The notes: a model not told the origin generated them from the sequence alone. Positions 8,177-29,614 are shown, counted from the first letter of the stretch. The stretch: DNA of 60,485 nt from Candidatus Parcubacteria bacterium (GCA_019347895.1 JAHWKM010000005.1:1-60485), one strand, 5' to 3'. Made by a program: numbers and translations.

Positions 8177-8937
8177 AAAAGATGCAATTGCTGGCTTTTT
8201 ATCAGCCGCAAGGCCAAGCCGCTGCTGCTGCCCCTTCTCGCGACATGCAAACCGTCGCCGGCAGCATTAGCAAAAAGATCGGCGATAGCCAAATGAACAC
8301 CGCTGCTTTTTGAATGCAAGGCTATAGCCAGATGCGAGTTGCCTTGAAGTTTGCGGGCCAGCGACATCTCGCTCCGGCTGACTTCAAGATTGGCCAGCAC
8401 GGATACGGTCACATTATTGCCCCGCTGCCTTCTGGCGCTAACCATGATCTGTCTGGTAGATTTTTCTTCTACTGATTCCAGGGCCATGTTCAATAAGCAC
8501 CAAAGTGCGGTTTTTAATCCTTTGGGGTTAGTTTCTACCGTCTGGTCATGAATGTCGGAAATCAAGTTAATTCGCTGGCTGGCGGCAACTGGCCGAAATT
8601 CCTCAAGAGCATCATATATAACCGATCCGATACCAATTGTCTCAAGCGGCAGTTTAACCTGCCCGTACTCTGACTGAGCTAGCAGCAAGTAGCTGTCAAT
8701 CAGTTTTAAAGTCTGTTCAGCGGTATTCTGGATTGACGCGAAAGACGCGTCAGAGGAATTCAGCGCTTCAAGTTCTGCCTGCCGGGCAATTAGAATTAAC
8801 GGGTTTTTTAATTCACGGGCCAATGCCCCGAGCAGCTGCGTATTACTTGGAAAATTTTGATTTTCGCCCACAGAATTCCCCCGCTTTTCTTTAATAATTG
8901 TATCACGCGCACTCATTACTATAGCAAGCTGTAGCAT
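8173..8937 (-). CDS. Degenerate histidine-kinase-like protein (H-box His->Arg)
   Basis: LARELKNPL H-box, LIDSYL, degenerate N and G boxes (LLNMA, SSGVHLAIA); overlaps the regulator start (ATGA). Confidence 0.65.
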   Translation of the reverse strand: MLQLAIVMSARDTIIKEKRGNSVGENQNFPSNTQLLGALARELKNPLILIARQAELEALNSSDASFASIQNTAEQTLKLIDSYLLLAQSEYGQVKLPLETIGIGSVIYDALEEFRPVAASQRINLISDIHDQTVETNPKGLKTALWCLLNMALESVEEKSTRQIMVSARRQRGNNVTVSVLANLEVSRSEMSLARKLQGNSHLAIALHSKSSGVHLAIADLFANAAGDGLHVARRGSSSGLALRLIKSQQLHLL

Positions 8938-8981
8938 TTAAGTTTCTTTAAAAGTCTGCCTATCCTTGGAGGAACCAAGAC

Positions 8982-9360
8982 ATTTCGGCAGTACTTCGTA
9001 CCTTCCCCGACCCACTTTCTTGTGTTGACAAGAAAGTGGGCAAAGAAACGCTCGTCAGGTGATAAAACGCGACTGAAGCGAGATACCAGAATCATGGAAT
9101 TCTAATTATTGGGTTTGGGCATTGAGAGCCGTCCTGATTGGTGAGTGTCAAAAACACAATTACTAGCGAGGCAGTGTTAAGCCAATTTCTCTTTGGAAAT
9201 AATGCAAAATTGGTGAGTTTGCCGAGCATTGTGTCTTTTGACAATGAGCCAGTCAAGATGGTTCGACGCCCAAGAGCTTTTGCATTCTTTTGTCGGCACA
9301 AAAGAATGGACTTGGTTCTTGGTCGCAAGAACATGGCTTGGTTCTTCACTAGAAGAACAT
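8982..9360. repeat. Family I nested-palindrome element, locus 1
   Basis: Long hairpin ttgggc(9115)..gcccaa(9273) plus three short hairpins; 9265-9314 matches the reverse complement of 23858-23907 at 49/50. Confidence 0.85.
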
Positions 9361-9364
9361 GGTT

Positions 9365-10015
9365 TTATGGCGAAAATGTAAGGTCAGGCAAGATTATATT
9401 ATTGAAGTCTTTAAACCGGTCCGAAGCTTGGCTGGCAATAGTTATGGTTTTATCCCTTAGCGGCAGGACTATGACAGATTCAACCCTACCCTCTTCAACC
9501 TGCCCGTCAAATTTAACACCTACGACACCCGGTACTTTAGGCAATGAATACGCTACTGCCTTTAACAATCCATCCCGGACTTGGCCTTCGTATTTAGTTA
9601 TTGATTCATCATAAGACATACCTTCAACAGTTATTTTTAAAGCGTGCGGACTGTCATTCGCAGCCGATACAAACTTCGGGTTAAAGATATACTCCGCATT
9701 TTCCTCGTTTAGTATGTAGGAGCTCCAGGTTTTAGGATAGCTGACTTTTATACCCCCAAATTGTGCCGGCCCCTGGTATTCACTCAAAGGAAATTTCTCG
9801 CGCTCCAAAAATTCATTGTCTTTCTCTGTTGCGAGCTTTTCGTTAGCCACCTCTACGGCCGCTTCAATCTTTTGGTCGACATTATTTTTATAATCATTGC
9901 GCTCGTAAAATGCCCAGGCAGCGAAACCAAGTACTCCAAAAAAGCATACTGATGAAATAATCAGCGGTATTAATAAAATGTTCAAAGCGCCCTGTTCGCC
10001 GAGTTTACGCTTCAT
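9365..10015 (-). CDS. Membrane-anchored hypothetical protein, prepilin-like N-terminus
   Basis: EQG|ALNILLIPLII hydrophobic helix, then a soluble domain (VSYPKTWS). Confidence 0.55.
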   Translation of the reverse strand: MKRKLGEQGALNILLIPLIISSVCFFGVLGFAAWAFYERNDYKNNVDQKIEAAVEVANEKLATEKDNEFLEREKFPLSEYQGPAQFGGIKVSYPKTWSSYILNEENAEYIFNPKFVSAANDSPHALKITVEGMSYDESITKYEGQVRDGLLKAVAYSLPKVPGVVGVKFDGQVEEGRVESVIVLPLRDKTITIASQASDRFKDFNNIILPDLTFSP

Positions 10016-10104
10016 CCGCTTAAGAGCTCTCTTTCATTTTTCAACCCGCAGAAATTAATACTGTCCGATTTTCTAACGGTATTCATAATTCTTATGTTAT
10101 CACA

Positions 10105-10587
10105 TTAGTATTTGTACAGATATACGCCGTGCAGTTCTTTTATGTGTTTTTTGGCCGTAATTTTAAAGGAGTTGCTGACGACAAGTATTGGCTTTTTATA
10201 GCGAGTTCGAATTTTTTTATCGAGTTTGTTCATATATCTATCTAACAAGAAAATATAAATAGCGTCGCATTCCGGCCAATTCTTGGTCCAAAAATTACCC
10301 CAGATGATTTTTACCTGGCTCCTATATTTTCGCGTTTGATAAATCGATATTAAAACCAGCAGCGGATTCAGTTCATAGCCGACCACGTATAGGCCCCTCT
10401 GGGCAGCGCTAACCATAACCCGCCCGTCGCCGCTGCCAAGTTCCAGCAGTGTTTGGCCGGGCTTCAGCTCTAAAAGATCTAGGGCGTTTTTTTTAGTGTT
10501 GGCCAGCGTGGGCAAATAAGGCGCGCCGAAAAAAACCACCATGCCGAATGTTAGGATTATTGCAAAAATTGCATATAAGAATAGCAT
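10105..10587 (-). CDS. Class I SAM-dependent methyltransferase, N-terminal TM
   Basis: GAPYLPT, LLELGSGDGR, GYELNP. Confidence 0.85.
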   Translation of the reverse strand: MLFLYAIFAIILTFGMVVFFGAPYLPTLANTKKNALDLLELKPGQTLLELGSGDGRVMVSAAQRGLYVVGYELNPLLVLISIYQTRKYRSQVKIIWGNFWTKNWPECDAIYIFLLDRYMNKLDKKIRTRYKKPILVVSNSFKITAKKHIKELHGVYLYKY

Positions 10588-10596
10588 TTTTTAGGG

Positions 10597-10782
10597 TTAG
10601 CTTCTTGTTATTTTCTTGATTTTGGCTTCGGATTTTTTTAAATAAACGTCCATCTCGGCTATTACCTTTTGGCTTTTTTCGTATAATTTTATAGCTTCGT
10701 CCACGTCTAACGACTCGTCTTCCAGCTTGGCTATTAGCTTGTCCAGCTCTGTCTTTAGGTTGGTGTATTCATTTGAGCTCAT
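10597..10782 (-). CDS. xseB: Exodeoxyribonuclease VII small subunit
   Basis: ELDKLIAKLE..LDVDEAIKLYEK; follows xseA. Confidence 0.88.
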   Translation of the reverse strand: MSSNEYTNLKTELDKLIAKLEDESLDVDEAIKLYEKSQKVIAEMDVYLKKSEAKIKKITRS

Positions 10783-11890
10783 TTATTTTCACAACCTCGC
10801 TAGTTAACTCGCCGTCGATTAATTCTATGGATATATGTTCTTTAATTTTAACATCCTTTGTCCCCCGTACCTGTTTTTGGCGGCTATTCCTAATTAGCGC
10901 GTAGCCTTTATCCAGCGGCAATTTTGGATTCAAAGCGTTAATCAAACTGGCTTTTTGGTCTAAATTTATCCGTTCTTGTTCAACTTTTGTGTTCAATTTC
11001 TGGTATAAATATTCAACTATACGAAGATTGTCTTGTCTATTCTCTTCAATAATATGGCGGACATTTCTCTGTAGATTTTTTTTGTTTTGTTCAAAAGCTG
11101 ACTTCTCATGCCGGCCGTCGGGCACCAGAAGCTCCGCGGCGTTGCTGGGCGTACTGGCACGCTGGTCAGAGGCTAGCTCAGCTAGGCTTATGTTTCTTTC
11201 ATGGCCAATAGCTATCAGTGTAGGCACCCGGCTGGACGAAATGGCGCGTACAACCCGCTCATCCGAAAATGCCGCCAAGTCGTCTTCGCTTCCGCCGCCG
11301 CGTATCAGCACCAAAGCTTCCGGCGGATCAGCCATCTGACTGACAAAATTAACGGCTCTAATGATCTGTTCCGGCGCGCTGGCGCCTTGTACCAGGCAAT
11401 CCAACACTTCTATTGTTAGGTTGCCCCAGCGTGCATTAATAATCTTTATAAAATCACTATAGGCAGCTGAATCAAAAGAAGTAATCAAGGCAATTCTGCC
11501 AGGGGGGTAAGGCAAAGGGCGCTTGCGGTCTTGGCTAAAAAGACCTTCTGCTTCCAGCTTCTTAGCTAAAAGTGATTTAGCCTTGGCGATCGAACCTTCC
11601 CCGGTGACCTTGATGCTTCTCGCATTTACAGAAAAACCGTATATATTATGCAGCCAGGGTGATCCGTTAACCTCTAGGTTCATCCCGTCCTCCAGCGGAC
11701 CGGGCAAGACTGTAACAGGACCAAAAAATTTCAGCGAAGACTTTTCATCCTTAAGGTCAAAATAAACCCAAGCGTTTTTGCTGATTCTCAGATTTGCCAG
11801 CTCGCCGCGCACATTAACATCTGGCAGAATCATCTGCATGGATTGGTTAAATACAGCTACGAACTCACTGACCGATAGAGTTGGCGTCAT
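10769..11890 (-). CDS. xseA: Exodeoxyribonuclease VII large subunit
   Basis: VYFDLKD, IRGGGSEDDLAAF, AIGHE, STPSNAAE. Confidence 0.95.
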   Translation of the reverse strand: MTPTLSVSEFVAVFNQSMQMILPDVNVRGELANLRISKNAWVYFDLKDEKSSLKFFGPVTVLPGPLEDGMNLEVNGSPWLHNIYGFSVNARSIKVTGEGSIAKAKSLLAKKLEAEGLFSQDRKRPLPYPPGRIALITSFDSAAYSDFIKIINARWGNLTIEVLDCLVQGASAPEQIIRAVNFVSQMADPPEALVLIRGGGSEDDLAAFSDERVVRAISSSRVPTLIAIGHERNISLAELASDQRASTPSNAAELLVPDGRHEKSAFEQNKKNLQRNVRHIIEENRQDNLRIVEYLYQKLNTKVEQERINLDQKASLINALNPKLPLDKGYALIRNSRQKQVRGTKDVKIKEHISIELIDGELTSEVVKINELK

Positions 11891-12951
11891 GTTTTGCCCA
11901 AATCGCCCATATTCTTGCCGATCCCGCCCGCACTATTGATGGTTTTATGGTAAAAGTAATAACCTATCGGCAGCTGCAGCGACATTGTCAGCATTCTATA
12001 CATAATAACCGCGGGGATGCTTACGGCCGGAGACACTCCGCCGGTTGCCAAAACCGCAACCATCAAGGCCTCATAAATACCAACTCCGCCCGGTAATACG
12101 GAGATTAAGCCGGCGAAGTTAGCTATGGCGTAGGCAATTATCACGGCACCGGGGTTGACTGCCTCGCCAAAAGCCAAAAATACACTATAAAGCGCGGCAA
12201 TCTCCCCGAAGTTTGCCAGGCTAATGTAGAGTATCGGTTTTTTTAATTTTTTCAGATCTTTTTTAATTTCTAAATAATTATCATGCAGTTCGTAAAACAT
12301 TTTTCTGGCGGCAGCTATATTGATCGTTTCGGGACTCGCCGGTCTTACGAAATGAATCAAACGGTTAACTAACTTGGTTAGAAAGGTGAAGAAGCCGCTT
12401 ATCCGTTCACGGCTGCTAATGATGTATGCCAGCAGCACCGTACCGACAACCAGTAATGTAGTTAGCGAGCTAGCCACCAATATGGTCAGGTTGCCCGCCT
12501 TGCCCGCGGCGGCTAAAACAAACAGCCCGAAGAAAATAAAAATCTGGAATGATACAAACGTATTGATAAACCGCATGGCTTGAACCAGCGTAGATCTCCC
12601 GGCGCTTATGCCGAACTCGTGCATCTTTAGGCTAAAGTAGGAAAAACCGGTAACTCCTCCGCTGGGAAAAACATTGTTCACAAAATTAAGTTCCAGCGTA
12701 ATTTTGTACATCGTCCAATACTCTATCTTTTTGCCCAGTATCTTAAACATGTCTATATACATCTTTGTATAGCCATGGAAAACCAAAAATTTCCAGAGAA
12801 GAATAAGCACCAGAAAGCTAGCTTGAACCCGGCCGAGATTAGATAGAGTTTCGCCTATTTGTTGCCGGGAAACATAAATAAGCACCCCCAAAGCCAGCAA
12901 GGTTATAATTGTAATAATTTTTTTCCATTTGCCGCCTAGCTTTTCTGCCAT
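11887..12951 (-). CDS. Lysylphosphatidylglycerol synthase TM / flippase-like (UPF0104) membrane protein
   Basis: NNVFPSGG, LPGGVGIYE, YRMLT; start set at MAEKL (12978 also possible). Confidence 0.8.
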   Translation of the reverse strand: MAEKLGGKWKKIITIITLLALGVLIYVSRQQIGETLSNLGRVQASFLVLILLWKFLVFHGYTKMYIDMFKILGKKIEYWTMYKITLELNFVNNVFPSGGVTGFSYFSLKMHEFGISAGRSTLVQAMRFINTFVSFQIFIFFGLFVLAAAGKAGNLTILVASSLTTLLVVGTVLLAYIISSRERISGFFTFLTKLVNRLIHFVRPASPETINIAAARKMFYELHDNYLEIKKDLKKLKKPILYISLANFGEIAALYSVFLAFGEAVNPGAVIIAYAIANFAGLISVLPGGVGIYEALMVAVLATGGVSPAVSIPAVIMYRMLTMSLQLPIGYYFYHKTINSAGGIGKNMGDLGKT

Positions 12952-13030
12952 CAGGTACTTAGTATAACTTAAGTTCATTGCCCGAAAAATGATTCGGGAA
13001 TTCCCGGGCAGCTATGATAATATTGCTTAA

Positions 13031-14224
13031 ATGCTAAAAACTACACGAAAACTTATCAAAAAAACAGCGGCCAATCTCAACATTTCTGACGATGTTCTCA
13101 CCCGACTGCTTAAGGTTGATAAAATTCATGAATTCGAGATCCAGCTCAAAAGTGGCAAAAAATTTAAGGCTTACCGTTCGCAGCACAATAATCGGCTTGG
13201 TCCCTATAAAGGCGGCATCCGTTTTCATCCGGAAGTAACCGCCGAAGAAGTCGAAGCCTTGTCTATACTTATGAGTTTTAAATGTGCGGCGGTTGGTTTG
13301 CCTCTGGGCGGCGGCAAAGGAGGTATTAGCGTAAACCCGAAAGAACTTAATATTGACGAAATCGAAGAACTTAGCCGGGCTTACGTAAAACACTTGCATC
13401 CGCACATAGGCCCCGATAAGGACGTGCCGGCGCCCGACGTTAATACAAATAGCCAAATAATAGACTGGATGGTCGACGAATATTCCCGTCAGACAAACCT
13501 GGAAACTGTCGCCAGCTTTACGGGGAAGAGCTTGCTCAAAGGCGGCAGCCACGGGCGCGAAGCAGCCACGGGCTACGGCGGCGTCATCGCCCTCAATCGC
13601 TACCTTGAGCTGAAAAACGAGCAAAATAAGGAGATTTCTATAGCTATCCAGGGTTTTGGCAAAGTCGGGAAATTCTTTGCCCGAAGAAGCCGGCCAAACT
13701 GGAAAATCACGGACGTTTCCGACAGCAGCGCCAGCCTCCAAAACTCTCAGGGCCTGGATATAGACGAATTGATAAAATTTAAAAACGACGGAAAATCATT
13801 TAAAGATTTTTCTTCGGCCACCGCGACGGTATTAAAGAGCAATCAAATTATAAGCGCGGATACAGACGTACTTGTCCCCGCTGCGCTTGGCAACGCAATA
13901 ACGCAGAATAATGCCGGCTTAATTAAAGCTAAAATAATTGTGGAGCTGGCTAACGGGCCGGTGACTGAACCAGCCTTCCGTATTTTGGATAAAAAAGGCG
14001 TAACGGTCTTGCCTGATATTATCGCTAACGCCGGCGGCGTAATCGTAAGCTACCTGGAGTGGCAGCAAAACCTAAACCATGAAAAGTGGCCGGTAGAAAA
14101 GGTTGAAAGCCGGTTAAAAATGTATATAGAAAAAGCCATAGAGACAGTTTATTCAGTATCTAAGTCAGACAAGGTGTCCATCAAAGAAGCCGCTCTGCGG
14201 GTAGCTATAAAAAGACTAATATAA
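13031..14224 (+). CDS. gdhA: Glu/Leu/Phe/Val dehydrogenase (glutamate dehydrogenase)
   Basis: GPYKGGIRFHP, GGGKGG, DVPAPDVNT, IQGFGKVG, ELANGP, ANAGGVIVSY. Confidence 0.9.
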   Translation: MLKTTRKLIKKTAANLNISDDVLTRLLKVDKIHEFEIQLKSGKKFKAYRSQHNNRLGPYKGGIRFHPEVTAEEVEALSILMSFKCAAVGLPLGGGKGGISVNPKELNIDEIEELSRAYVKHLHPHIGPDKDVPAPDVNTNSQIIDWMVDEYSRQTNLETVASFTGKSLLKGGSHGREAATGYGGVIALNRYLELKNEQNKEISIAIQGFGKVGKFFARRSRPNWKITDVSDSSASLQNSQGLDIDELIKFKNDGKSFKDFSSATATVLKSNQIISADTDVLVPAALGNAITQNNAGLIKAKIIVELANGPVTEPAFRILDKKGVTVLPDIIANAGGVIVSYLEWQQNLNHEKWPVEKVESRLKMYIEKAIETVYSVSKSDKVSIKEAALRVAIKRLI

Positions 14225-14950
14225 TTAAACAGATACGTTAAATAGCCGGCCAATGAAATAAGTAGCCGTCATGGCCAGAATTCCGCCTGCTACAACTCTA
14301 GCTATAGCTTTTCGGGCTTTTGCTCCGCCCACTCTGGCGCTTAAAAACCCGGTGATCGATAAGGCCAAAACAACCGATACAAAAGTCACCCATATTTTTT
14401 GCGGCTGCGGCGGCAGCAGTACCGCCACCAGCGGAATAAGCGCTCCGCAGACAAAAGCGGCGGCTGAAGCAAAAGCCGCGTGCCAAGGGTTAGTTAAATC
14501 GTCGGGATCAATCTTGAGCTCCGCTTCGACATGAGCCCGGAAGGGATCGCGGGCTGATAATTCCTTAGCGACGTTCATCGCGGTTTTTTCACTCAAGCCC
14601 TTTCGTACGTATATTGCTGTCAATTCCTTTAATTCTTCCCTCGGGAAGTTTTTCAACTCGTAGGCTTCTTTGGCAAGCAAGGCTTTTTCACTGTCGCGCT
14701 GCGAACTAACAGATACGTATTCTCCGGCTGCCATCGAAAGCGCTCCTGCCACAATACCGGCCAGACCAGCGGCTAGAACTATGCTCGCGTTGCTTGTAGC
14801 GGTGGCGACACCTACTACCAGTCCGGCAATTGATACAATTCCATCATTGGCGCCAAGCACGGCCGCCCTCAGCCAATTTAACTTTGAAGCTTTATGATTC
14901 TTATGAAATTGCGGATGCCTGCCGGAATGTTTGTAGCTTTTATTTCTCAC
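14225..14950 (-). CDS. VIT1/CCC1 family Fe/Mn transporter
   Basis: LRAAVLGANDGIVS, GALSMAAGEYVSVSSQRD. Confidence 0.93.
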   Translation of the reverse strand: MRNKSYKHSGRHPQFHKNHKASKLNWLRAAVLGANDGIVSIAGLVVGVATATSNASIVLAAGLAGIVAGALSMAAGEYVSVSSQRDSEKALLAKEAYELKNFPREELKELTAIYVRKGLSEKTAMNVAKELSARDPFRAHVEAELKIDPDDLTNPWHAAFASAAAFVCGALIPLVAVLLPPQPQKIWVTFVSVVLALSITGFLSARVGGAKARKAIARVVAGGILAMTATYFIGRLFNVSV

Positions 14951-14990
14951 ATTCTTTATTTTACAATTTTTACTCGGTTATACTAAGTTA

Positions 14991-16238
14991 ATGCAGACAA
15001 TTATTATTCACGGTCGCCAGCCGGGACTTGGCAGAGCCGAGCTGGAAAGTTTATATGGCCCTGAAGTATCGCGCCCGGCAGGCAATATCGCCACTCTTAT
15101 AGATAAAAACCCGTCCGAGATCAATTTTATGCGCCTGGGCGGAATGGTTAAATTCGCTAAAATCCTAACGGTTTTAGATACTACCGACTGGAGAGAAATC
15201 GAAGTGTTTTTATTGGAGGCAACCCCGCAGCATTTTTCAACTTTGCCTGAAGGCAAACTTAAAATAGGTCTGAGCGCATACGATATAAAGACCAGTCCAA
15301 AAAGCCTGCATATAACCGCCCTCAAGCTTAAAAAAGCCGCCAAAGCTACTGGCCGTTCCGTTAGAATAATTTCCAATAAAGAATTAGCATTGAACAGCGC
15401 TACGGTGCTTTATAATAAATTAACTCAAAAACTAGGCTGGGAAATAATATTTGTGCGCGATGGGAACCAAACCATAGTCGCCCAATCAATAGCGGTCCAA
15501 GATATAAACAGCTACGCTCGGCGCGACCAAGAGCGCCCATACCGCGACGCTCGCGTGGGCATGCTGCCGCCTAAATTAGCGCAGATCATCATTAATTTGG
15601 CAGTTGGCCGAATTAGTAGATCGAAGGCAGTAGATAGTACGATTCTAGACCCCTTTTGCGGTACGGGTGTTGTTTTGCAGGAAGCAATTTTGATGGGCTA
15701 CCAAGCTTACGGAACAGATCTTGAGCAAAGGATGGTTGATTATTCTGAAGGGAACTTAAAATGGCTTACTGGTCTCCACGGATTACCGCCGGCTTGCCCT
15801 GACGGCTTGCCAATGACGGAATCAAACAGCCGGCCTGCCACCTATAAGCTGGAGATTGCTGATGCGACTAGCCATACTTGGGAGCCAAAGCCCGGTTATA
15901 TTGCCGGCGAAACTTATTTAGGCCGGGCATTGTCTTCTCTGCCACAGCGCCAAACTCTACAAAAAATTATTTCAGACGTCAATACAATCCACCTAAAATT
16001 TTTGAAAAACGTAGCTAGTCAGACCGAGCCCGGCTTCCGGCTATGCCTGGCCGTACCAGTCTGGGCCGCTTTGGCAAATTCCAAAGCCAAAGGCTTTATC
16101 CGTCTTCCGACCCTTGATAAATTAAACGATTTGGGTTACAATCGTATTAAATTCGCGCACGCAAGCCAAGATGAATTAATTTACCATCGTCCTGGCCAAA
16201 TAGTCGGCAGAGAGCTGGTAGTACTCGAAAGGAAGTAA
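14991..16238 (+). CDS. TRM11-like RNA methyltransferase
   Basis: RDARVGMLPPKLAQIIINL, LDPFCGTGVVLQEA, ETYLG. Confidence 0.75.
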   Translation: MQTIIIHGRQPGLGRAELESLYGPEVSRPAGNIATLIDKNPSEINFMRLGGMVKFAKILTVLDTTDWREIEVFLLEATPQHFSTLPEGKLKIGLSAYDIKTSPKSLHITALKLKKAAKATGRSVRIISNKELALNSATVLYNKLTQKLGWEIIFVRDGNQTIVAQSIAVQDINSYARRDQERPYRDARVGMLPPKLAQIIINLAVGRISRSKAVDSTILDPFCGTGVVLQEAILMGYQAYGTDLEQRMVDYSEGNLKWLTGLHGLPPACPDGLPMTESNSRPATYKLEIADATSHTWEPKPGYIAGETYLGRALSSLPQRQTLQKIISDVNTIHLKFLKNVASQTEPGFRLCLAVPVWAALANSKAKGFIRLPTLDKLNDLGYNRIKFAHASQDELIYHRPGQIVGRELVVLERK

Positions 16239-16241
16239 AAT

Positions 16242-16514
16242 ATGTCAAAGATTAAAGCAGGCGGCAGCAGTAAGAACAACCACGACAGTCCCGGCCAGAG
16301 GCTGGGTGTCAAGTTATCGGGCGGCCAGAAGGCCAAGGTCGGGCAAATTATCGTCCGGCAAATCGGTATGACCAAGCGTCCCGGCCCCGGTACCAAAATG
16401 AGCGTAAACTTCACAATTCACGCCGCAAAAGACGGCGTAGTGGCTTTTAAAACCCGCAGAGTGCGTACCTTCACCGGCCGCACCGTCCCCCGCACCGAAG
16501 TCTCAGTAGTATAA
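16242..16514 (+). CDS. rpmA: 50S ribosomal protein L27
   Basis: KAGGSSKN..DSPGQRLGVK, GQIIVRQ. Confidence 0.95.
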   Translation: MSKIKAGGSSKNNHDSPGQRLGVKLSGGQKAKVGQIIVRQIGMTKRPGPGTKMSVNFTIHAAKDGVVAFKTRRVRTFTGRTVPRTEVSVV

Positions 16515-16527
16515 CGCGCTGGCAGCC

Positions 16528-16908
16528 CTATAGGCCAAGGTGGAATTTGATACGGTCTACTACGTCGGCTATTACTACTTGAGATTTTATTAGATAGTCA
16601 TCAGCGCCGAGTGCTTTGGCACGTTCTTTGTCGCTGTCTTGGCTTAATGCGGTTAGCATAATAATCTTAATTTCTTTAGTCTCTTCGGTGTTACGCAGTA
16701 TGTCTAAAACATCAAAACCGCTGACTTTCGGCATCATAACGTCTAATAAAATTAGGTCCGGTTTGATCTGTATAGCTGTAGCCAATGCGTCTTCGCCGTT
16801 AGATACCCGCCTGGTAGTAAAACCTTCGGCCTGCAAGCGCGTTTCATAGACGCTAGCTAACCTGTCGTCGTCTTCTACCAATAAAATTGTTTTTTTATTT
16901 TCTTCCAT
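16528..16908 (-). CDS. Single-domain response regulator (canonical)
   Basis: LLVEDD, LLDVMMP, MLTA, YLIK all intact. Confidence 0.92.
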   Translation of the reverse strand: MEENKKTILLVEDDDRLASVYETRLQAEGFTTRRVSNGEDALATAIQIKPDLILLDVMMPKVSGFDVLDILRNTEETKEIKIIMLTALSQDSDKERAKALGADDYLIKSQVVIADVVDRIKFHLGL

Positions 16909-16949
16909 TAATATAATGCTAAATTAATCCGCTTGAATTTACAAGTAGA

Positions 16950-18548
16950 TTAGATACCTCTATTTTTAATAATAGCCTCTATAAAGCCTTTGAACATAGG
17001 ATGAGGGTGGTTTGGGCGGGAGTTAAACTCCGGATGAAACTGGCTGGCTACAAAATACGGATGATCAATACCTTCTATCATTTCCACTAAGAGCTCGTCA
17101 GGGCTGGCGCCTGCTATCTTAATGCCCCACTCCTGGTATTTGTCCCGAAATGCGTTATTACACTCATATCGATGGCGGTGCCTTTCCCGTATTTCCTTTT
17201 TTCCATATATGCTTCTGGCTATAGTGCCGCTGGCAAGTACACAGGGATAATCGCCGAGACGCATAGTACCGCCGGTTTCTTCCTTGCCTAGCTGGTCCGC
17301 CATTGTATCAATAACCATATGCCGGCTGTTGGGATCGAATTCTCGGGAATTCGCGTCTGCTACACCGGCGTTGCGTGCGGCAGCGATGACGCCAACCTGA
17401 AGTCCTAAACATAGGCCAAGGTAAGGTTTTTTATTCTTGAGTGCGTACTGGGCGGCGGCAATTTTACCTTCAATTGCCCGGCTGCCGAAGCCGCCGGGTA
17501 CTAAGATGCCGTCGTAGTTCGACAGTTCTTTGATGGACTGCGTATCTTCAGCATTTACCCAGCGGATATCCAGGCCGACGCCGGCAGCCCAGGCCGCCGC
17601 TTTCAACGCCTCGAATACCGAGATGTAAGTATCTTGGTTGTCTAAATACTTAGCAACCACGCCGACACTTACTCTCTTTTTTGGTTTATTAAGCGCGCTG
17701 GCTACCATTTTGGACCAGTCATTTAATTTGGGTTTCTTAGCGTTTAGGTCCAGCCTTTTAGATAAAAACTTGCCGATACCGTTTTCTTCCAGCGTCAGCG
17801 GGACTTCGTAGATGGTTTCGGCGTTTGGCAGCAATACCAAGGCTTCTCTGCTTACGCCCGCGTAGGAACTGAGCTTTTGCAAAGTCTCCTCGCCCGGCTG
17901 CCCCTCGCTTCGGGCCACCAATACATCCGGTACTATCCCGGCGGAGCGCAAATCCCGAACCGCGTTTTGGGCAGGCTTGGTTTTATACTCTTGGCTCGTA
18001 CCTAAAAATGGCAAATAAACCACATGCACATAAATATAGTTTTCCCGGCCCAGCGTAAGACCCATTTCTCGAATAGCCTCTATAAATGCCGGGCTTTCAT
18101 AGTCGCCGACAGTCCCGCCTATCTCTACGATATGTACGTCGAAGCCTTTTCCGGCTGCGGCAATTTCTTTTTGTATAGCGTTAGTCAAATGCGGAATGAC
18201 TTGCACTGTTTTGCCGATAAATTTACCGGCCCGCTCATCTTGAATCAGCTTCAACAGCAACCGGCCGCTCATCAAGCTGCTTTTTTGGGTCAGCTGAACA
18301 TTGATGAACCGTTCATAATGGCCTAAGTCCAGATCAGTTTCCGCCCCGTCTATGGTAACGAAACATTCGCCATGCTCAGCCGGATTTAGGGTACCGGCGT
18401 CAACATTAAAATAAGGATCGCATTTTTGTATATTGACCCGCAGACCGCGGGCTTTTAAGATGTTACCGATCGAGGCGCTGGTGATACCCTTGCCGATTCC
18501 CGACAAGACGCCACCTGTCACAAAAATATATTTTGTTTGCTTTGCCAA
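16950..18548 (-). CDS. pyrG: CTP synthase
   Basis: KYIFVTGGVLSGIGKG, DLDLGHYERF, GLCLG, QFHPEF; TTG start at 18548 after agagg. Confidence 0.97.
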   Translation of the reverse strand: MAKQTKYIFVTGGVLSGIGKGITSASIGNILKARGLRVNIQKCDPYFNVDAGTLNPAEHGECFVTIDGAETDLDLGHYERFINVQLTQKSSLMSGRLLLKLIQDERAGKFIGKTVQVIPHLTNAIQKEIAAAGKGFDVHIVEIGGTVGDYESPAFIEAIREMGLTLGRENYIYVHVVYLPFLGTSQEYKTKPAQNAVRDLRSAGIVPDVLVARSEGQPGEETLQKLSSYAGVSREALVLLPNAETIYEVPLTLEENGIGKFLSKRLDLNAKKPKLNDWSKMVASALNKPKKRVSVGVVAKYLDNQDTYISVFEALKAAAWAAGVGLDIRWVNAEDTQSIKELSNYDGILVPGGFGSRAIEGKIAAAQYALKNKKPYLGLCLGLQVGVIAAARNAGVADANSREFDPNSRHMVIDTMADQLGKEETGGTMRLGDYPCVLASGTIARSIYGKKEIRERHRHRYECNNAFRDKYQEWGIKIAGASPDELLVEMIEGIDHPYFVASQFHPEFNSRPNHPHPMFKGFIEAIIKNRGI

Positions 18549-18639
18549 ACCTCTATTAACCCTTCTGTTAAAAATAAATATTACCTCAGATAACACTCTT
18601 TAGCAAGCCTCGGTTGATCTTTAATTGTATATAAAAGAC

Positions 18640-19200
18640 ATTTCGCACGCACTTCGTGCTTACAGCGAGATACTTTTCCCTGCAGCAGCAAAAGTATGCA
18701 AAAGTGCTGCAGCAGGTTACCAAACACGACTGGTTTGAGATACCAGGCTGGTTGGTTAGGCAAAAAACGTCCCTTCGGGGCCGGTCTTCGAATTTATTAT
18801 TAATATAAGATGATTCTCAGACTAGCTTTTGCCTAAGCCATTCCAACCAGCGCAGGTTCAAACCAATCGGTTTGGCAAGTGCTGGTTAAAAGCAGATGAG
18901 AAAACAAGTTTTTCTCAAATAATAAATAATGGCAATTCCATTTTTTGGGTTTGGGCATTATGGAGCGCCCTGATTGGCGAATGTCAAAAACACAATTAGC
19001 AGCGAGGCAGTGTCTAAGCCCCGCCCTCTATTGAATTAATTAAGGTGGGGTGAGTTTGCCGAGCGTTGTGTTTTTTGACAATGAGATAGTCAAGGTGCGT
19101 AATACTGCCCAATCGGTTTGGAATACCTTTGCCGAAACAAAGGTATTGATTTGCTTCTTTATCCAAAGAAGTATGGCTTGGTTCTTCGCCAGAAGAACAT
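18640..19200. repeat. Family I nested-palindrome element, locus 2 (two inverted arms)
   Basis: Right arm 18951-19200 aligns with 9115-9360. Left arm has gatacttttccctgcagcagcaaaagtat, the reverse complement of the hairpin near 24310-24338. Confidence 0.85.
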
Positions 19201-19203
19201 AAT

Positions 19204-20418
19204 TTATTGTTTTAAAAATCGTATAGCGGCGTCACGCTGCGGATCTTTTTTGGCTTCCGCGTCTTTATCGGTTAACTCGACTTTTTTGTCCGGTTCAATG
19301 CCTTCCTTATCGATATTGCGGCCGTTTGGCGTGAACCAGCGGGCTATAGTAACCTTTAACAGGCCGCCGAAATCAAGCGGTTTTACTTCTTGCACGCTGC
19401 CCTTGCCGTAGCTTTGTTCGCCAAATAAGGTAGCCGCATTGTTGTCCTTTAAGGCTCCCCCCACAATCTCGCTGGCGCTGGCGCTGCCTTCGTTTATCAA
19501 TACTGCCGTTTTTATTCCTCCTAGCATTGGGGTGTTTTGTGAAGTATAGGTCTTTATAACTACCTCATCTCGCTTTTCTTGCAGGATTGTGGCACCTTTT
19601 GGCAGCCAAATCTCTGAAACCCCAACCGATGCTTCCAGCAGGCCGCCGGGGTTGCCGCGCAGGTCCAAAATCACCTTATTCACCTGTTTGGCCTTAAAGT
19701 CTCTGGCGGCTTCTTTTACCAACTGGACAGTATCCTCGCCGAACCTGGTAATTTTTATAACTCCGATGTTTGACTCGAGAGTTTCAATTTCCACGCTCGG
19801 TATGGATATCTGGGCGCGGCTTACTTCTATATCCAGTTTTTCGCCGTTTCGAATTATGCCCAGCTTTACCTTCGTGCCTTTCGGCCCCCGTATTTTCTTG
19901 ACCGCTTCGGTAATAGATAAGTCATAGGCACTTTCTCCGTCGATTTCAGCGACTATATCTTTGGCTTTTATGCCGGTCTTGGCCGCCGGGAACCCTTCAA
20001 TCGGAGCTACGATTACAATCGCCTGTTCTTCCTTGCCCAGCTCGGCCCCGATACCCTCAAATGAACCGCTTAAACCTTCCTCAAAATCTTTGCTCTCCTC
20101 AGCATTCAAATATTCCGTGTAAGGGTCGCCGGAAGCCTTAACCAGCCCTTCCTTGAGCCCGTTGATCAATTCATCCGGGTCCAAATTCCCATCAAAACTA
20201 GCCTTGAGTTCGTCATATACTTCTTCGACGCCTTGGTAATTGAGTTTATTAGGCAAACGGTTGTTTTGGGAGGCCTCGTTTCGTTCGGTAGGCAAATTAA
20301 AGCTTATGACTCTTTGTTGTCCTAAAATAACACCAAGCGAAAAAACCAAGGCTATTAAAATTGCGCCTTTGAAAAAGTTTTTAGGCAACTTAAGTCGTGG
20401 TTTATATTTATTTTTCAA
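19204..20418 (-). CDS. ctpA: S41 carboxyl-terminal processing protease
   Basis: GDPYT, FEGIGA, PDZ domain, LDLRGNPGG, SASASEI, GKGSVQ. Confidence 0.93.
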   Translation of the reverse strand: MKNKYKPRLKLPKNFFKGAILIALVFSLGVILGQQRVISFNLPTERNEASQNNRLPNKLNYQGVEEVYDELKASFDGNLDPDELINGLKEGLVKASGDPYTEYLNAEESKDFEEGLSGSFEGIGAELGKEEQAIVIVAPIEGFPAAKTGIKAKDIVAEIDGESAYDLSITEAVKKIRGPKGTKVKLGIIRNGEKLDIEVSRAQISIPSVEIETLESNIGVIKITRFGEDTVQLVKEAARDFKAKQVNKVILDLRGNPGGLLEASVGVSEIWLPKGATILQEKRDEVVIKTYTSQNTPMLGGIKTAVLINEGSASASEIVGGALKDNNAATLFGEQSYGKGSVQEVKPLDFGGLLKVTIARWFTPNGRNIDKEGIEPDKKVELTDKDAEAKKDPQRDAAIRFLKQ

Positions 20419-20508
20419 AAAACCCTTCCATATTCACTTATATATTAGCGTAAATCTAAAGAAAAATCTGCGGTTTTATTAAACTTTAGACTCTCTTTTG
20501 AATAGATT

Positions 20509-21726
20509 TTAGAAATGTATGAATTCTAAGCCAGAAGCTCTGACGTTCATTTCGCTATATTGCCCTGGTGCTCCAAAATTGAACTGACTAACTCTGATCC
20601 ACCCACCCCCCAGAACCGCCTCTACGTACATTACATGTCCAACAGGTCCGTAGTATCCTCCTGCTTCAGCAACCGCCACATCACCAACCCTTGGGTTGCT
20701 GTCTACTTTAATACCAGCGCTACGAGCATTGTCATCCCACAGATGGGCATTACCACGTCCTCCCCAATAAGGCATGTCTCGGCCTGATGCAGCAACCCTA
20801 TAAGCGGTATAGCTAACGCACTCGCGGTTGTACATACCCCAATTGTCGATAGTGTTATCCAGCGGATAATTGCAACCCCAGCGAGCTCCAAAATTATTTA
20901 CCGCATCGCGAGGATAGCCACCGCCGCAATTTCCACGAGCAACAATACTGACTCCTCCGCTACTTATAGCCCGTTTATTAGCTGCAAGCTGCTCGGCACG
21001 TATACTAGCTATTCTTCTTTGATTTGCCCTGATCTGAGCTTCTACCTTATTTTGCTCACTTTTATTCAAAGATAGTAGCCTGTTTTTTTCACTGCGTTGG
21101 CTTAATAATTGATTTTTTAGCCTTGTTTGTTCTTTAAGCAGTTTTTCTGCTTTATCTTTTTTAGTACTTAAGTCCAGCTTTAGCTGGTTGACCTTATCAA
21201 GGGTGGTCTTTACCTGGGAGCTAACACTTTCCCTGTACTGCTGCTGGTCAAAAAAGTCCGCCAAATCGTCACTCGAGGCCAGCATTTCCACAGTTGAAAT
21301 GTCGCCTTCTACGTAAATAGCCCGAATTATATCTCTTAGCAAACCTTTTTGCCTTTCAAGCTCTATCTCGGCTTTTTTGATTTCTTGTTTTAGCTTCGTA
21401 ATTTCTTTCTGGTGAGCCCGGATAGCTCCCGCTTTAGCATTAATTTCAACTTGCAGCTTATTAACAAGGTCTTTTAAACTTTTGGCCTCCGATCCAAGCT
21501 GGGCTGCAGCGGCCTCTTTTTTATTATTTTGTTTTTCTAGTTCTTTAATCCTTGTATCAAACTGATCAGCCTGAGCAACAGAAAAGCCGGCGACAGAAAA
21601 GGCCATGACAAAAACCAAGCATAAGGCCATTATTCCTTGGCGGCTTAGAACGGAAATACTTCTGTTTTTAATTTTTTTTGATTTTGACATTTTTATTTTT
21701 TGAGTGTACAAATACAATTTTAGCAT
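20509..21726 (-). CDS. Coiled-coil + CHAP peptidoglycan hydrolase (PcsB/CwlO-like, FtsEX partner)
   Basis: Signal peptide, long coiled coil, RECVSY..GNAHLW..GHVMYVE; downstream of ftsEX. Confidence 0.88.
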   Translation of the reverse strand: MLKLYLYTQKIKMSKSKKIKNRSISVLSRQGIMALCLVFVMAFSVAGFSVAQADQFDTRIKELEKQNNKKEAAAAQLGSEAKSLKDLVNKLQVEINAKAGAIRAHQKEITKLKQEIKKAEIELERQKGLLRDIIRAIYVEGDISTVEMLASSDDLADFFDQQQYRESVSSQVKTTLDKVNQLKLDLSTKKDKAEKLLKEQTRLKNQLLSQRSEKNRLLSLNKSEQNKVEAQIRANQRRIASIRAEQLAANKRAISSGGVSIVARGNCGGGYPRDAVNNFGARWGCNYPLDNTIDNWGMYNRECVSYTAYRVAASGRDMPYWGGRGNAHLWDDNARSAGIKVDSNPRVGDVAVAEAGGYYGPVGHVMYVEAVLGGGWIRVSQFNFGAPGQYSEMNVRASGLEFIHF

Positions 21727-21879
21727 AAGCTTATAAATAAATCAACCCCTCTCCCCCAGGTTGCGGAGGAAATTATTTAGTATTAGATGTAGTTTGATTT
21801 TCGTAGTATTTATGTGTGGGGGGCGCAACCTGCCGGTTTTTCGGTATTTGTTTATTGCGCTTATGACTATACTAACACA

Positions 21880-22869
21880 CTATTTTCGGAGACGAAGTTT
21901 TTCTAATTTTTGGCGGAACATCGGATGCGACACCCGCAAATAGCGGTGAGTAGCAATGAGCGAAGAGACCACGCCGATAGCTATGCCGGCTCCTAGCTGC
22001 AGCAATAAGATCCACCAGAAGTTCGACGCAAAATAAGTATTGGTATATTGAAGATCCAAAAGTCCCAAGCTGGTCGCGCCAAATGCCTGGGACTGAAATA
22101 CAAATAATGAATTAATCAGCAGCAGAGAAATAACGGCGGATACTATGCCATAAAGCATGGCTTCCACTATAAAAGGACCTCTTATATACCAGGGGTTCGC
22201 GCCCAGCAGTCGCATGATGTTCAGCTCCTCGCGCCGGTTAAAAATAGCCATCTGAATGGTGTTAAATATCAGAAGCATGGAGATCACTGCGAAGATAACA
22301 ACACCCGCGAAGACTGCCCTCTTAAAAAAAGATGTGGCGTTGGTTATTTTATCTATGGCATCCTTGCGGCTGCCGGAGTATGAGGTTTCGGTATAAAGTT
22401 CCTTGACCTCCGGAGATTCTATGAGGGCTGTTATGCTTGCTATTTTATCGGGCTCATATTCATGCGGCTTGATTCGGACTGTCTCCGGCAAAGGGTTCTC
22501 TACCGAGGCCACGGCAATCAACGCGTCGGCATCCTGGTCGTTTTTTTTCTCTTTTCGGTAATCTTCCAGGGCTTTTTCTTTTGAAATGTATTCCACGGAT
22601 TTAACTTCAGGATTTTCTTGCAACTTTTCGAGCAATTCATTTCTCTGCTCTTCGTTCACTGAATCCTTTAAGTAAACAGATATGCCGATTTTGTCATTAA
22701 TTTGCTGAATGGTGTGATTGAAGGTCGCGTTGGCAATAACGGAAAACAAAACGATAGTAAGGGTTACGACCATAACTGCCGTGGCTGCCACGCTCAGGCT
22801 AATGTTGCGCACAAAGTTTACGCTACCGCTGCGAAATACTCTCGATAAGGTAATGAAACGCCTGTCCAT
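21880..22869 (-). CDS. ftsX: Cell division permease FtsX
   Basis: ENPLP, IFNTIQMAIFNRREE..IMRLLGA..IRGPF. Confidence 0.93.
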   Translation of the reverse strand: MDRRFITLSRVFRSGSVNFVRNISLSVAATAVMVVTLTIVLFSVIANATFNHTIQQINDKIGISVYLKDSVNEEQRNELLEKLQENPEVKSVEYISKEKALEDYRKEKKNDQDADALIAVASVENPLPETVRIKPHEYEPDKIASITALIESPEVKELYTETSYSGSRKDAIDKITNATSFFKRAVFAGVVIFAVISMLLIFNTIQMAIFNRREELNIMRLLGANPWYIRGPFIVEAMLYGIVSAVISLLLINSLFVFQSQAFGATSLGLLDLQYTNTYFASNFWWILLLQLGAGIAIGVVSSLIATHRYLRVSHPMFRQKLEKLRLRK

Positions 22870-22887
22870 ATTAGATTACACCTTTTC

Positions 22888-23060
22888 GATCTGCCTTACA
22901 CACTTGAGTGCCAGACACAATCCGCCCACGGCGGACGGACTGAGCCGTATAATTTATACGGCTCAGGAGTATCACAGGAGAAAATTGCGTCTGGCGCCAA
23001 GAAGCTGGCGGGGTTTTGGGCTCTGCCCGAAAGCGGGACAGCTGGTGTGTAAGGCAGATC
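22888..23060. repeat. Family II structured element between ftsE and ftsX
   Basis: Perfect 16-bp terminal IR gatctgccttacacac / gtgtgtaaggcagatc; internal 13-bp IR 22940-22966; homologous to 26762-26933 in the opposite orientation. Confidence 0.85.
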
Positions 23061-23742
23061 ACTCGTTATACCCGCTGTTAGCCCTATCGCTGACGATTTT
23101 GCCGTCTCTTATAGTCACCACGCGTCTTTTCAGACGGTTTACAATTTCTTGATTATGGGTAGTCAAAAGCACAGTCGTGCCGAATTTATTAATTCTTTCT
23201 AATACTTTTATAACGTCCCAGGCATGCTTCGGGTCAAGATTGCCGGTCGGTTCATCGGCTATTAATATCTTTGGCTGGCGGACAACCGCCCTGGCTATCG
23301 CTACCCGCTGCATTTCGCCTCCCGATAATTCGCGCGGATAATTCTTGGCCTTATTTTTAAGTCCGACAATATTTAATACTTTAGGCACGGTATAACGGAT
23401 TTCCCGGTTGGAATAACCGGCAATTTCCAGAGCGAACGCTACATTTTCAAAGACGGATTTATTGGGCAGCAATTTAAAATCCTGAAAAACCACGCCTATT
23501 TTTCGACGAAGCCTAGGAATATTTTTATCCTTTAACCGTTCATAATCTATTCCGCCGATAATAATTTTGCCGCTTGAAGGTTTCTCTTCCCTAGTCAAAA
23601 TTTTAAGCAGCGTGGATTTGCCGGCACCACTTGGACCTACGATAATCACGAATTCCCTCGGTTCAACATGCAAGCTAATCCGGTCCAGGGCAGCCATCTT
23701 CCTAGGCTGGTATGTTTTAGTTACTCGATCCAAAAGAATCAT
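23059..23742 (-). CDS. ftsE: Cell division ATP-binding protein FtsE
   Basis: GPSGAGKST, VVFQDFKLL, LSGGE, ADEPTGNLDP; start MILLDRV. Confidence 0.95.
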   Translation of the reverse strand: MILLDRVTKTYQPRKMAALDRISLHVEPREFVIIVGPSGAGKSTLLKILTREEKPSSGKIIIGGIDYERLKDKNIPRLRRKIGVVFQDFKLLPNKSVFENVAFALEIAGYSNREIRYTVPKVLNIVGLKNKAKNYPRELSGGEMQRVAIARAVVRQPKILIADEPTGNLDPKHAWDVIKVLERINKFGTTVLLTTHNQEIVNRLKRRVVTIRDGKIVSDRANSGYNE

Positions 23743-23811
23743 TAGCACTATTATAGCAAAAACGCTCATCTTTAGATAAAGAAGTAAAATCTTATTTATA
23801 ATAAAGAACGA

Positions 23812-24365
23812 ATTTCCGGTACTTCGTACCTACAGCCATCTTCTTTCGACAAAGAAGCAAGTCCATTCTTTTGTGCCGACAAAAGAATGCAAAAACTCTT
23901 GGGCGTCGATCCATCATGACTGTCTCATTGCCAAAAGCAACAACGGCTTGAAAAACTCCCTTTGGTCGGCTTCGCTCTTTATTAATTAATAAAGATGTCG
24001 CTCAGCTCGCTTTCAAGCCTTAAAGTTGTTGTTTTGACACTCGTCAATCAGGACGGCTCTCTATGCCCAAACACGGGAGAATGGAATTTCCATTACTATT
24101 TAATTTGAGAAATTGAAGAATTTCTCATCTACTTTTGGTCAGGCTCTGGAAGTTCCTGATGAGTGAATGTCTAAAGCACAATTTCTAGCGAGGAAGTGTC
24201 TGAAGCTTTCCATCCTATGGATCAATAAAGGAAGGCTGAGTTTTCCGAAGCATTGTGCTCTTTGACAATGAACTCCTCAAGAACTGGAAGCCGCCTGCGG
24301 CATTTTGGGATACTTTTGCTGCTGCTGGGAAAAGTATCGACTTGTTTCTTGGTCACAAGAAAATG
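23812..24365. repeat. Family I nested-palindrome element, locus 3 (two full inverted arms)
   Basis: Left arm (about 23834-24135) is the reverse complement of the locus 1/2 right arms; right arm (24140-24365) is a diverged forward copy. Confidence 0.85.
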
Positions 24366-24368
24366 ACC

Positions 24369-25445
24369 TTATTTAATAGAATAATCAGTATAGGCTTCGA
24401 GGAAGTCATTTAGGTCGCCGTCCAGGACCTTGTCCGGGTCTTTGCTCTCATAACCCGTCCGCAAATCTTTTACCTGTTTATAGGGGTGTAGGACATAGTT
24501 TCGTATTTGGTTGCCCCAGGCGGCCTGTTCATTCGGGCCCTTCAGTTGGGAAATTTTTTCGGCATGCTGCTCTATTTTCAATTGGGCCAGTTTGGAGCGC
24601 AAGATTGTCATAGCTGTTTCTTTATTCTGTAGCTGCGAACGCTCGTTTTGGATACTGACAACAATACCGGTTGGCAAATGCGTAACGCGCACGGCTGAAT
24701 CGGTAGTGTTTACGCTCTGGCCACCTCGTCCGCCAGCCCGGAAAACATCGATTTTCAGCTCGCTGTCATCTATTGGCAGGGATTCAGGTTCGTCAATTTC
24801 GGGCATAATGTCGACTTTGGCAAAGCTGGTTTGGCGCAAGCTTTGGGCGTTAAATGGGCTCTGCCGGACCAGACGATGGACACCATGCTCGCCTTTTAGC
24901 TTGCCGTAGGCCAGCGGACCAGAAATTTCTAAACTTACACTTTTTAGACCGGCCTCATCGCCGATAGATTCATCTAAAATCCTGGCTTTGTAGCCTTGCG
25001 CCTCCGCCCAGCGCAAATACATCCGCTGCAGCATAGCCGCCCAGTCCTGAGCGTCAACGCCGCCAGCCCCAGCCCGTATATCCAAAAGAACGTTATGTTC
25101 GTCGTACGGACCGCTAAAAGCCAGGTCCGTGTGCATACTCGTATATTTTTTTCGCAAAATTTTAAATTGTTTTTCTATGCCAAGCCGCAAAGACTCATCG
25201 TGCATCTCCAGCAATTCCTTTAGTTCCGCTGACTCTTTTTGCAGCTGTTCCCAAGCGTTAATTTTTTCTTCCAACCGTGCCAGCTGCTGCATTACCTTGA
25301 TAGCTTTTTGATTATCGTTCCAAAATCCCGGTTCTTCGCTTTTTTTCTTTAATTCTATTTGCTTCTTTTTTATTTTTTCCAAATCAATAGCCTCAACATC
25401 TTTTTGAATATTGCCGGCTAATTCGTTTATTTGCTGGGCGTCCAT
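24369..25445 (-). CDS. prfB: Peptide chain release factor 2 (single ORF, no frameshift)
   Basis: SPF motif (RQSPFN), GGQ, WGNQIRNYV. Confidence 0.96.
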   Translation of the reverse strand: MDAQQINELAGNIQKDVEAIDLEKIKKKQIELKKKSEEPGFWNDNQKAIKVMQQLARLEEKINAWEQLQKESAELKELLEMHDESLRLGIEKQFKILRKKYTSMHTDLAFSGPYDEHNVLLDIRAGAGGVDAQDWAAMLQRMYLRWAEAQGYKARILDESIGDEAGLKSVSLEISGPLAYGKLKGEHGVHRLVRQSPFNAQSLRQTSFAKVDIMPEIDEPESLPIDDSELKIDVFRAGGRGGQSVNTTDSAVRVTHLPTGIVVSIQNERSQLQNKETAMTILRSKLAQLKIEQHAEKISQLKGPNEQAAWGNQIRNYVLHPYKQVKDLRTGYESKDPDKVLDGDLNDFLEAYTDYSIK

Positions 25446-26933: not shown

Positions 26934-26938
26934 ATACA

Positions 26939-29545: not shown

Positions 29546-29614
29546 AAATTATATTCACTTACCTCCAAGTGGTTTTGATACATTGTAACGTTTTTTATCA
29601 GTTGTTTCCAGAGT

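Follow-up and report, generated by a model that had tools for sequence, protein, structure and literature searches.

REP sequences are short imperfect palindromes of about 20-40 nucleotides (nt) with a conserved 5' GTAG. BIME of E. coli and BOX of Streptococcus pneumoniae are modular hairpin boxes, variable in number and order, which lie in intergenic or 3' regions and for which we know of no transposase of their own. [quoted passage not shown] Here we describe a family of hairpin-rich repeats with three loci in a contig of 60,485 nt from a Saccharibacterium (JAHWKM010000005.1, the whole of which is called the window; it is contig C23 of genome G000, which comprises 907,117 bases in 27 contigs with 45% G+C). 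The unit of the family, here called an arm, is 250-280 nt long, comes in two diverged types, A and B, and is found singly or as back-to-back inverted pairs (doublets). The family works like REP-, BIME-, BOX- or RPE-type palindromes, yet it departs from REPIN-RAYT systems in the tested respects other than inverted doublets, belongs to no Rfam family and is specific to one family-level group of Saccharibacteria. The literature listings and abstracts consulted contained no description of such repeats for Saccharibacteria, Patescibacteria or the candidate phyla radiation.

Like the REP/REPIN-RAYT elements of proteobacteria, the arms are interspersed extragenic palindromes that lie behind genes, often as inverted doublets (11/11 of the full doublets are inverted), their folding signal is confined to one strand, and G000 has a RAYT-like gene. 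Unlike them, they are about 10 times longer and multi-domain, GTAG precedes the mini-hairpin only in some arms of G000 and of its relative G006 and not in those of G007, and the RAYT-like gene is flanked by a hairpin of its own, unrelated to the arms, and shows no co-occurrence with them. The arms are modular, hairpin-built and intergenic as BIME and BOX are, but they have no sequence relation to these, their modules are larger (rods of 165-210 nt), their fold is kept across genera with compensatory changes, and the host is a Saccharibacterium with a genome below 1 Mb. With the RPE, ERIC and Correia-type elements they share presence/absence differences between relatives, but the units are longer, no in-frame gene insertion was seen in the window, no TA duplication or terminal inverted repeats could be defined for the arms, and neither G000 nor G007 yielded an IS630-type DDE_3 gene; nor did these two genomes hold a related autonomous insertion-sequence transposase, as a MITE would have, among rve, DDE_3, DDE_Tnp_1, OrfB_IS605 and RVT_1. 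Derivatives of IS200/IS605 and the guide RNAs of TnpB and IscB (omega/reRNA and HEARO, an Rfam family) are likewise structured, 150-300 nt long and active on one strand, with a 3' end that abuts host sequence. Against this likeness, the two ends of an arm carry no similar hairpins, the arms have no Rfam match, and no OrfB_IS605 or zinc ribbon match was found, in a search that did not include IscB-specific domains.

Two nhmmer models were built, model A from window positions 9090-9364 and model B from 18634-18925, and G000 was searched with blastn and iterated nhmmer. Where the first-pass annotation had described a family of three copies, the search returned 24 A-type and 25 B-type matches (the latter from one chosen nhmmer iteration), which resolve into 44 non-overlapping matches in 29 loci and occupy about 9.9 kb, or 1.1%, of the genome. 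Three contigs, C2 (at its end), C13 (at its start) and C15 (at its end), break inside a repeat copy, so this count is a lower bound and the repeats evidently limit the assembly. Many of the copies are fragments.

Read in the A sense, which is the reverse of the B model sense, an arm consists of an optional 5' hairpin (H0), a rod, a hairpin (H1), an optional mini-hairpin followed by cgaaat, and 0-2 ggttctt/aagaacc hairpins. The rod measures 165 nt in A-type arms and about 210 nt, with a three-way apex, in B-type arms and in A subtype 2, and the primary sequence of its internal loops is strongly conserved across genera. H1 occurs as discrete alleles (cattcttttg/caaaagaatg, gatacttttg/caaaagtatc and aatacctttg/caaaggtatt). 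The GAA triloop, to which attention had been drawn on the minus strand, is frequent in the mini-hairpin but not constant, TTC, TAAA and CAAA being seen as well. Since the B model matches A sites on the opposite strand, B is a diverged, inverted relative of A. The 11 full doublets are all back to back with the rod starts at the centre (eight B+A+, two A-A+, one B+B-), the A-A and B-B ones being inverted by construction, and three more composite loci with fragments show other arrangements.

The three window loci take up the spaces at 8938-9364, 18597-19203 and 23770-24368 that separate minus-strand open reading frames (ORFs). Locus 1 joins a B fragment to an A arm, locus 2 is a B and A doublet, and locus 3, corrected from B/A, consists of two A-type arms of different subtypes. 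Their parts are listed below with the supporting scores, R1 being a covariance model of the rod with 165 positions and 31 pairs.

8979..9092, minus strand: locus 1 left arm, truncated B-type (nhmmer 78.5 bits, over positions 2-114 of the B model)
9106..9359, plus strand: locus 1 right arm, full A-type (nhmmer 251.7 bits; R1 166.5 bits)
18636..18920, minus strand: locus 2 left arm, full B-type (nhmmer 277.8 bits; B-arm alignment)
18921..18941, no strand: locus 2 A+T-rich centre aataataaataatggcaattc between the arms (upstream-region alignments)
18942..19198, plus strand: locus 2 right arm, full A-type (nhmmer 221.8 bits; R1 155.7 bits)
23812..24078, minus strand: locus 3 left arm, A-type subtype 2 with a three-way apex (nhmmer 193.5 bits; R1 119.4 bits)
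24105..24368, plus strand: locus 3 right arm, A-type subtype 3 (nhmmer 171.3 bits; R1 144.8 bits; tree)

Much of what the first-pass annotation had read from these stretches was seen again on reading the sequence and its ORFs: the three long stretches themselves and the gaps that they fill, the opening atttc with a mini-hairpin gtac-ttc-gtac or gcac-ttc-gtgc, the alternative H1 hairpins and, around the apical stem, the junction motif. The bipartite organisation stood as an inverted pair of related arms, except that the left arm of locus 1 is a fragment of 114 nt only, which keeps the outer part (mini-hairpin gtac-ttc-gtac, H1 (cccactttcttgtg..caagaaagtggg) and the first part of the rod). B-type arms fold better in the minus-strand sense. 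The right arm of the same locus has its rod at 9112-9275, H1 at 9283-9308 and two small ggttctt..aagaacc hairpins. At locus 2 the left arm shows, in minus-strand order, H0, a rod of about 210 nt with a three-way apex, H1, gcac-gaa-gtgc and cgaaatg, and the A+T-rich centre aataataaataatggcaattc is kept among doublets in the upstream-region alignments. The left arm of locus 3 ends in gtag-gtac-gaa-gtac-cggaaat, and the right arm carries H0 and a rod with cctgatgag and groups with arms of G007 and G011.

A block of 50 nt had been reported as 49/50 identical between loci 1 and 3, and this holds: window 9263-9312 matches about 23860-23909 when the latter is read as its reverse complement. The block joins arms whose rod apices differ, so modules have been exchanged. 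Two other ideas about the arms were dropped: small conserved ORFs inside them, for which strand and frame were inconsistent, and a hammerhead ribozyme, since the cctgatgag of subtype 3 becomes cctgattgg in the main subtype and Rfam gave no match.

The arm fold is clearly kept by selection. When the rods of 41 arms from 13 genomes were aligned with R1, 96.7% of cells were paired, compared with 82.8% in shuffles, and 23/31 pairs showed compensatory changes, a number reached by 0/500 shuffles, while slid controls gave 3-9 pairs with double changes. RNAalifold on a MAFFT alignment of 30 arms predicted 32 pairs, 18 of them with changes on both sides, and among B arms (n=16, reverse sense) compensatory changes were present in 33/59 predicted pairs. 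Covariation, which had been noticed in four window arms, is strong.

Additionally, the fold is biased towards one strand. A arms fold better in the A sense in 16/17 cases (mean -12.1 kcal/mol) and B arms on the reverse of the B model in 14/15 (mean 12.7 kcal/mol); for the A arm of locus 1, z was -6.45 on the plus strand and -5.06 on the minus strand. Wobbles follow the same sense, with 55 G-U cells in the rods against 18 A-C cells, although 24 of the 55 come from two columns, and in B arms U-G is kept at two positions in 15/16 and 12/16 copies. This bias of fold and wobbles indicates that the constraint on an arm acts on a single strand with one polarity, and in a doublet the two constrained polarities point outward from the centre. 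Comparison of arm orientation with GC skew and gene-strand bias gave no replication-strand pattern separable from gene orientation.

A search of 30 family genomes with R1, including relatives G001, G002, G006, G007, G011, G014 and G021, found arms in 14 of them, belonging to 6/8 genera. G000 has about 17 copies (A-type only), G007 about 18 and G014 8, another 11 genomes have 1-4 each, and 16 have 0; among those without copies is G002, which is 98% complete in one contig. An exact scan with an 18-mer of the rod gave 53 stretches in genome contigs and 4 in viral contigs, most of them due to chance because the pattern was too short; nhmmer on these stretches confirmed arms only in five Saccharimonadales loci, with locus L115 marginal at 17.6 bits, and no arm in the viral contigs.

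Empty orthologous sites, which the first-pass annotation had proposed to look for, were found for all three window loci. The spacer between the CTP synthase gene pyrG and the ctpA-like gene measures 156 nt and lacks an arm in G001, of the same genus, and is also empty in G006. A contig from run X1 with flanks about 88% identical joins position 8952 to 9364, with 40 other letters in place of 411 nt at locus 1. Among 29 genomes, G000 alone has an arm at the prfB site. Behind the gene for a 216-aa protein at locus 1, arms are present in G000, G006 and G014 (3/29 genomes, three genera), in one orientation and each with arm-free congeners, and this site is either a hot spot or the remnant of old copies lost many times. 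A FastTree of 41 rods, midpoint-rooted and read for topology without its supports, placed G000 subtypes 1 and 2 in one clade that includes the single G021 copy, the G007 arms in a clade of their own, and G000 subtype 3 with arms of G011 and G007. Such a pattern indicates separate bursts in separate genomes, unlike that of a vertically kept RNA gene.

Patchy distribution, empty sites, bursts per genome and mosaic copies together mean that the family behaves as a mobile or expanding element and not as a conserved RNA gene. These results also bear on what the first pass had left as a choice between a REPIN/MITE-like element and a multi-copy non-coding RNA: the behaviour of a non-autonomous interspersed element stands, while the HUH route proposed for it found no support. 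In our judgement the arms are probably, though by no means certainly, a non-autonomous mosaic repeat copied via a single-stranded intermediate of fixed polarity by some factor. New copies would arise through this intermediate, which might be DNA or RNA, and the factor would recognise the rod in its single-stranded form. A single-stranded intermediate would explain why fold and wobbles are kept on one strand per arm, whatever the orientation of the neighbouring genes.

Several observations weigh against such copying. Each copy differs from all the others (88-94% in the best long matches), and very recent movement is therefore not in evidence. At the junctions no consistent target-site duplication or matching terminal repeats could be defined, the outer ends of B-A doublets differ, and the borders cannot be placed because the available empty sites are too diverged (71-88% identity). 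Searches for OrfB_IS605, RVT_1, rve, DDE_3 and DDE_Tnp_1 gave 0 matches in G000 and G007, other transposase families lying outside the search, the TnpB zinc ribbon (PF07282) gave 0 matches in G000, the OrfB_IS605 domain PF01385 gave 0 matches in 5 genomes, and the presence of Y1_Tnp, the family of the RAYT-like gene, does not track arms (3 genomes with both among 25 scored). The site shared by three genera behind the 216-aa gene could mean old copies retained for a host function. The alignment behind the main covariation count was fitted to R1, which favours the model, and the MAFFT alignment of 30 arms agrees with it in direction. Finally, the last hairpin of A arms with its T-rich tail resembles a terminator in the well-folding sense, and a conserved A+T-rich box lies upstream of the rods in two genera; both would fit a transcribed RNA gene.

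In a different explanation, every arm would be transcribed on its own into a structured small RNA of about 250-280 nt and doublets would be divergent gene pairs; the family would amount to a multi-copy non-coding RNA that has proliferated, each RNA running from the A+T-rich centre to the terminal hairpin and ending just before, or antisense to, the neighbour's 3' end. The hairpin and T-rich tail are found at the 3' ends of all three window A arms in the plus sense (9341-9358, 19181-19198 and 24351-24368), an AATAAT-like box precedes the rod by about 20 nt in both G000 and G007, fold and wobbles are kept on the strand that reads outward in each arm, and the internal loops keep their primary sequence across genera. 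The expected signals of transcription are nevertheless scarce: the extended -10 of the host type (TGnTAnAAT) occurs 3 times in the arms and 60 nt on either side, against 8.4 expected, and region scans stay near the level of shuffles both for promoters (35 against 26.6) and for terminators (29 against 22.1). Nor is an RNA gene expected to be missing from 16/30 family genomes, to vary from 0 to about 20 copies with bursts per genome, or to include many fragments, and we hold this explanation to be rather unlikely. No tRNA or tmRNA was found, Rfam gave 0 matches at gathering score across the whole window and, with E up to 1, 0 matches on 8900-24400, and seven other arm loci at the same E gave a single snoRNA match at chance level; a known Rfam family, which would have taken away the novelty of the repeats, was therefore not recovered.

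Each locus had been described as ending 3-4 nt from the stop codon of a minus-strand gene. The arms do hug the stop, at an actual distance of 0-6 nt in the window. The neighbours, as assigned by Pfam, are a HisKA-like protein and a 216-aa protein without family at locus 1, CTP synthase (pyrG) and a CtpA-like S41 protease at locus 2, and an ABC ATPase and release factor 2 (prfB; PCRF/RF-1 on 24369-25445) at locus 3. The last hairpin of the right arm stops 5-6 nt short of the stop codon 9365-9367 of the minus-strand 216-aa gene at locus 1; at locus 2 it lies at 19181-19198 and is followed by ataattta and the stop codon 19204-19206 of the S41 protease gene; at locus 3 it lies at 24351-24368 and abuts the prfB stop codon 24369-24371, while the left arm of that locus faces the start of the ABC ATPase gene 23059-23769. 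The common polarity noted for the three loci is true and general for B-A doublets, whose A end meets a convergent stop in 7/9 by our own reading of listings with mechanically called ORFs. Genome-wide, 9/17 full A arms have a 3' end at a distance of 0-15 nt from a convergent stop codon, which the last hairpin overlaps in two of them, and about 8/13 arms of relatives likewise adjoin a convergent stop by our own reading of the listing. Solo B arms tend to have the rod start behind a stop, co-directional with the gene, which is what removal of the A arm from the usual doublet would leave.

Such placement could point to host-recruited cis elements of operon mRNAs, whose rods and hairpins would serve within the transcript for processing, for stabilisation of the 3' end or to block antisense transcription where genes are densely packed; roles of these kinds have been reported for REP and BIME in enterobacteria. 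Beyond the copies flush behind stops (the 9/17 full A arms within 15 nt and about 8/13 in relatives), the arm kept in the same orthologous spacer in three genera and the B-type arms lying mostly in the well-folding sense relative to the operon would suit such a role. But the A arms that abut stops are antisense to the gene, so the mRNA bears the worse-folding strand, most relatives have no arm at the same spacers (26/29 for the 216-aa gene and 28/29 for prfB), and the neighbours are unrelated genes, all of which makes recruitment of this kind very unlikely.

For a copied repeat, the position at stop codons may mostly reflect where insertion is tolerated, given spacers of 40-150 nt that hold the promoter of the next gene. 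The relatives' spacers behind orthologues of the 216-aa gene measure 40-135 nt, the two arm-bearing spacers excluded, and often contain a TGnTAnAAT promoter for the next gene; with so short a spacer the only harmless place for an insertion would be directly behind the stop codon. At loci L132-L159, which lie 3' of orthologues of window 9365-10015, most carry a clear extended -10, GTGCTATAAT or GTGCTATACT, and then GAGGG, after which the HisKA-like gene begins. Between the locus 1 arm and its HisKA-like gene, G000 lacks the extended -10 motif, and the promoter of that gene may therefore have been displaced or lost.

The first-pass annotation had favoured a DNA-level substrate of an HUH-type enzyme, and the arms might accordingly be REPIN-like single-stranded DNA elements moved by a RAYT-like HUH (Y1) transposase which reads the GAA mini-hairpin, preceded by GTAG in some arms. 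A candidate enzyme exists: C20:46729-47340 (positions 1306-1917 of locus L001, minus strand) holds an intact Y1_Tnp gene encoding a RAYT-like protein of 203 aa (Pfam 43.5 bits), and a broken copy lies in the window. Inverted doublets as in REPINs, the one-strand folding signal and the several arms that end in gtag-gtac-gaa-gtac would fit as well. The protein scores 46.3 bits on the NCBIfam model REP_Tyr_transpos, below the cut-off of 80, and its gene is bracketed by inverted copies of a different G+C-rich hairpin of 21 nt (ttgcaaggccgggccttgcaa / tgcgaggcccggccttgcaa, L001 1270-1292 and 1946-1966). This hairpin has 5 copies in G000, the other three at C20:38670, C4:29782 and C22:24910, and none of the 5 lies inside any arm; the Y1_Tnp gene and its 21-nt hairpin are a small separate REP-RAYT-like system. 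Of the 25 family genomes with a score from each search, arms occur in 11 and Y1_Tnp in 7; the two coincide in 3, against about 3.1 expected for unrelated features, and G007 combines about 18 arms with no Y1_Tnp. Neither GTAG nor the GAA loop is conserved in the G007 arms, and arms of 250-280 nt stand against a REP size of 20-40 nt. Mobilisation of the arms by this enzyme is thus highly improbable, and no co-occurring nuclease or transposase emerged from the tested families.

The broken second Y1_Tnp copy lies at window 57166-57646 (minus strand) and comprises ORFs of 50 aa and 132 aa, with a TGA within the family match.

That the arms stand for an undescribed form of DNA copying in ultra-small bacteria, with a rod-shaped single-stranded RNA or DNA intermediate, conserved loops, a factor outside the seven tested transposase and reverse-transcriptase families and placement at the 3' ends of genes, or else for an RNA expressed from each arm, about 250 nt long and ending antisense to the neighbour's 3' end, is unlikely in our estimate. 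If either the single-stranded copying or the expressed RNA were true, the arms would form a mobile structured element of a new class, one that has no known enzyme. Discovery of a mobilising factor or of an RNA role could also provide a natural means of insertion for these bacteria, whose engineering is difficult. The genomes of Saccharibacteria rank among the smallest of bacteria, but about 1% of the DNA of G000 belongs to one family of large folded repeats, whose long looped rods, one-strand wobbles, exchanged modules and separate bursts by genus, together with the lack of the seven tested families in the high-copy genome G007, are an unusual mix of features for bacterial interspersed repeats. 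A practical effect is that the repeats break assemblies, as at the three contig ends in G000, and yield spurious ORFs.

Some arms stand around genes. At C27:2200-4100, 9600-11300 and 26900-31300 they alternate, cassette-like, with small hypothetical genes of about 135-205 aa, and at C11:87075-88653 two inverted B arms flank two small ORFs. A helicase-like protein of 1157 aa is encoded at C20:30705-34901 and has a solo arm on either side, one B and one A, which point outward like a split doublet; by eye the protein resembles an SF1-type helicase with a P-loop ATPase core and an endonuclease-like C-terminus. Neither this gene nor the small ORFs between arms on C11, on C27 and in G007 had the look of a transposase in a reading by eye. 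Elsewhere in the window, 57879-60416 (minus strand) encodes an 845-aa protein rich in threonine and glycine with internal direct repeats D1 and D2, which looks like a repetitive surface protein.

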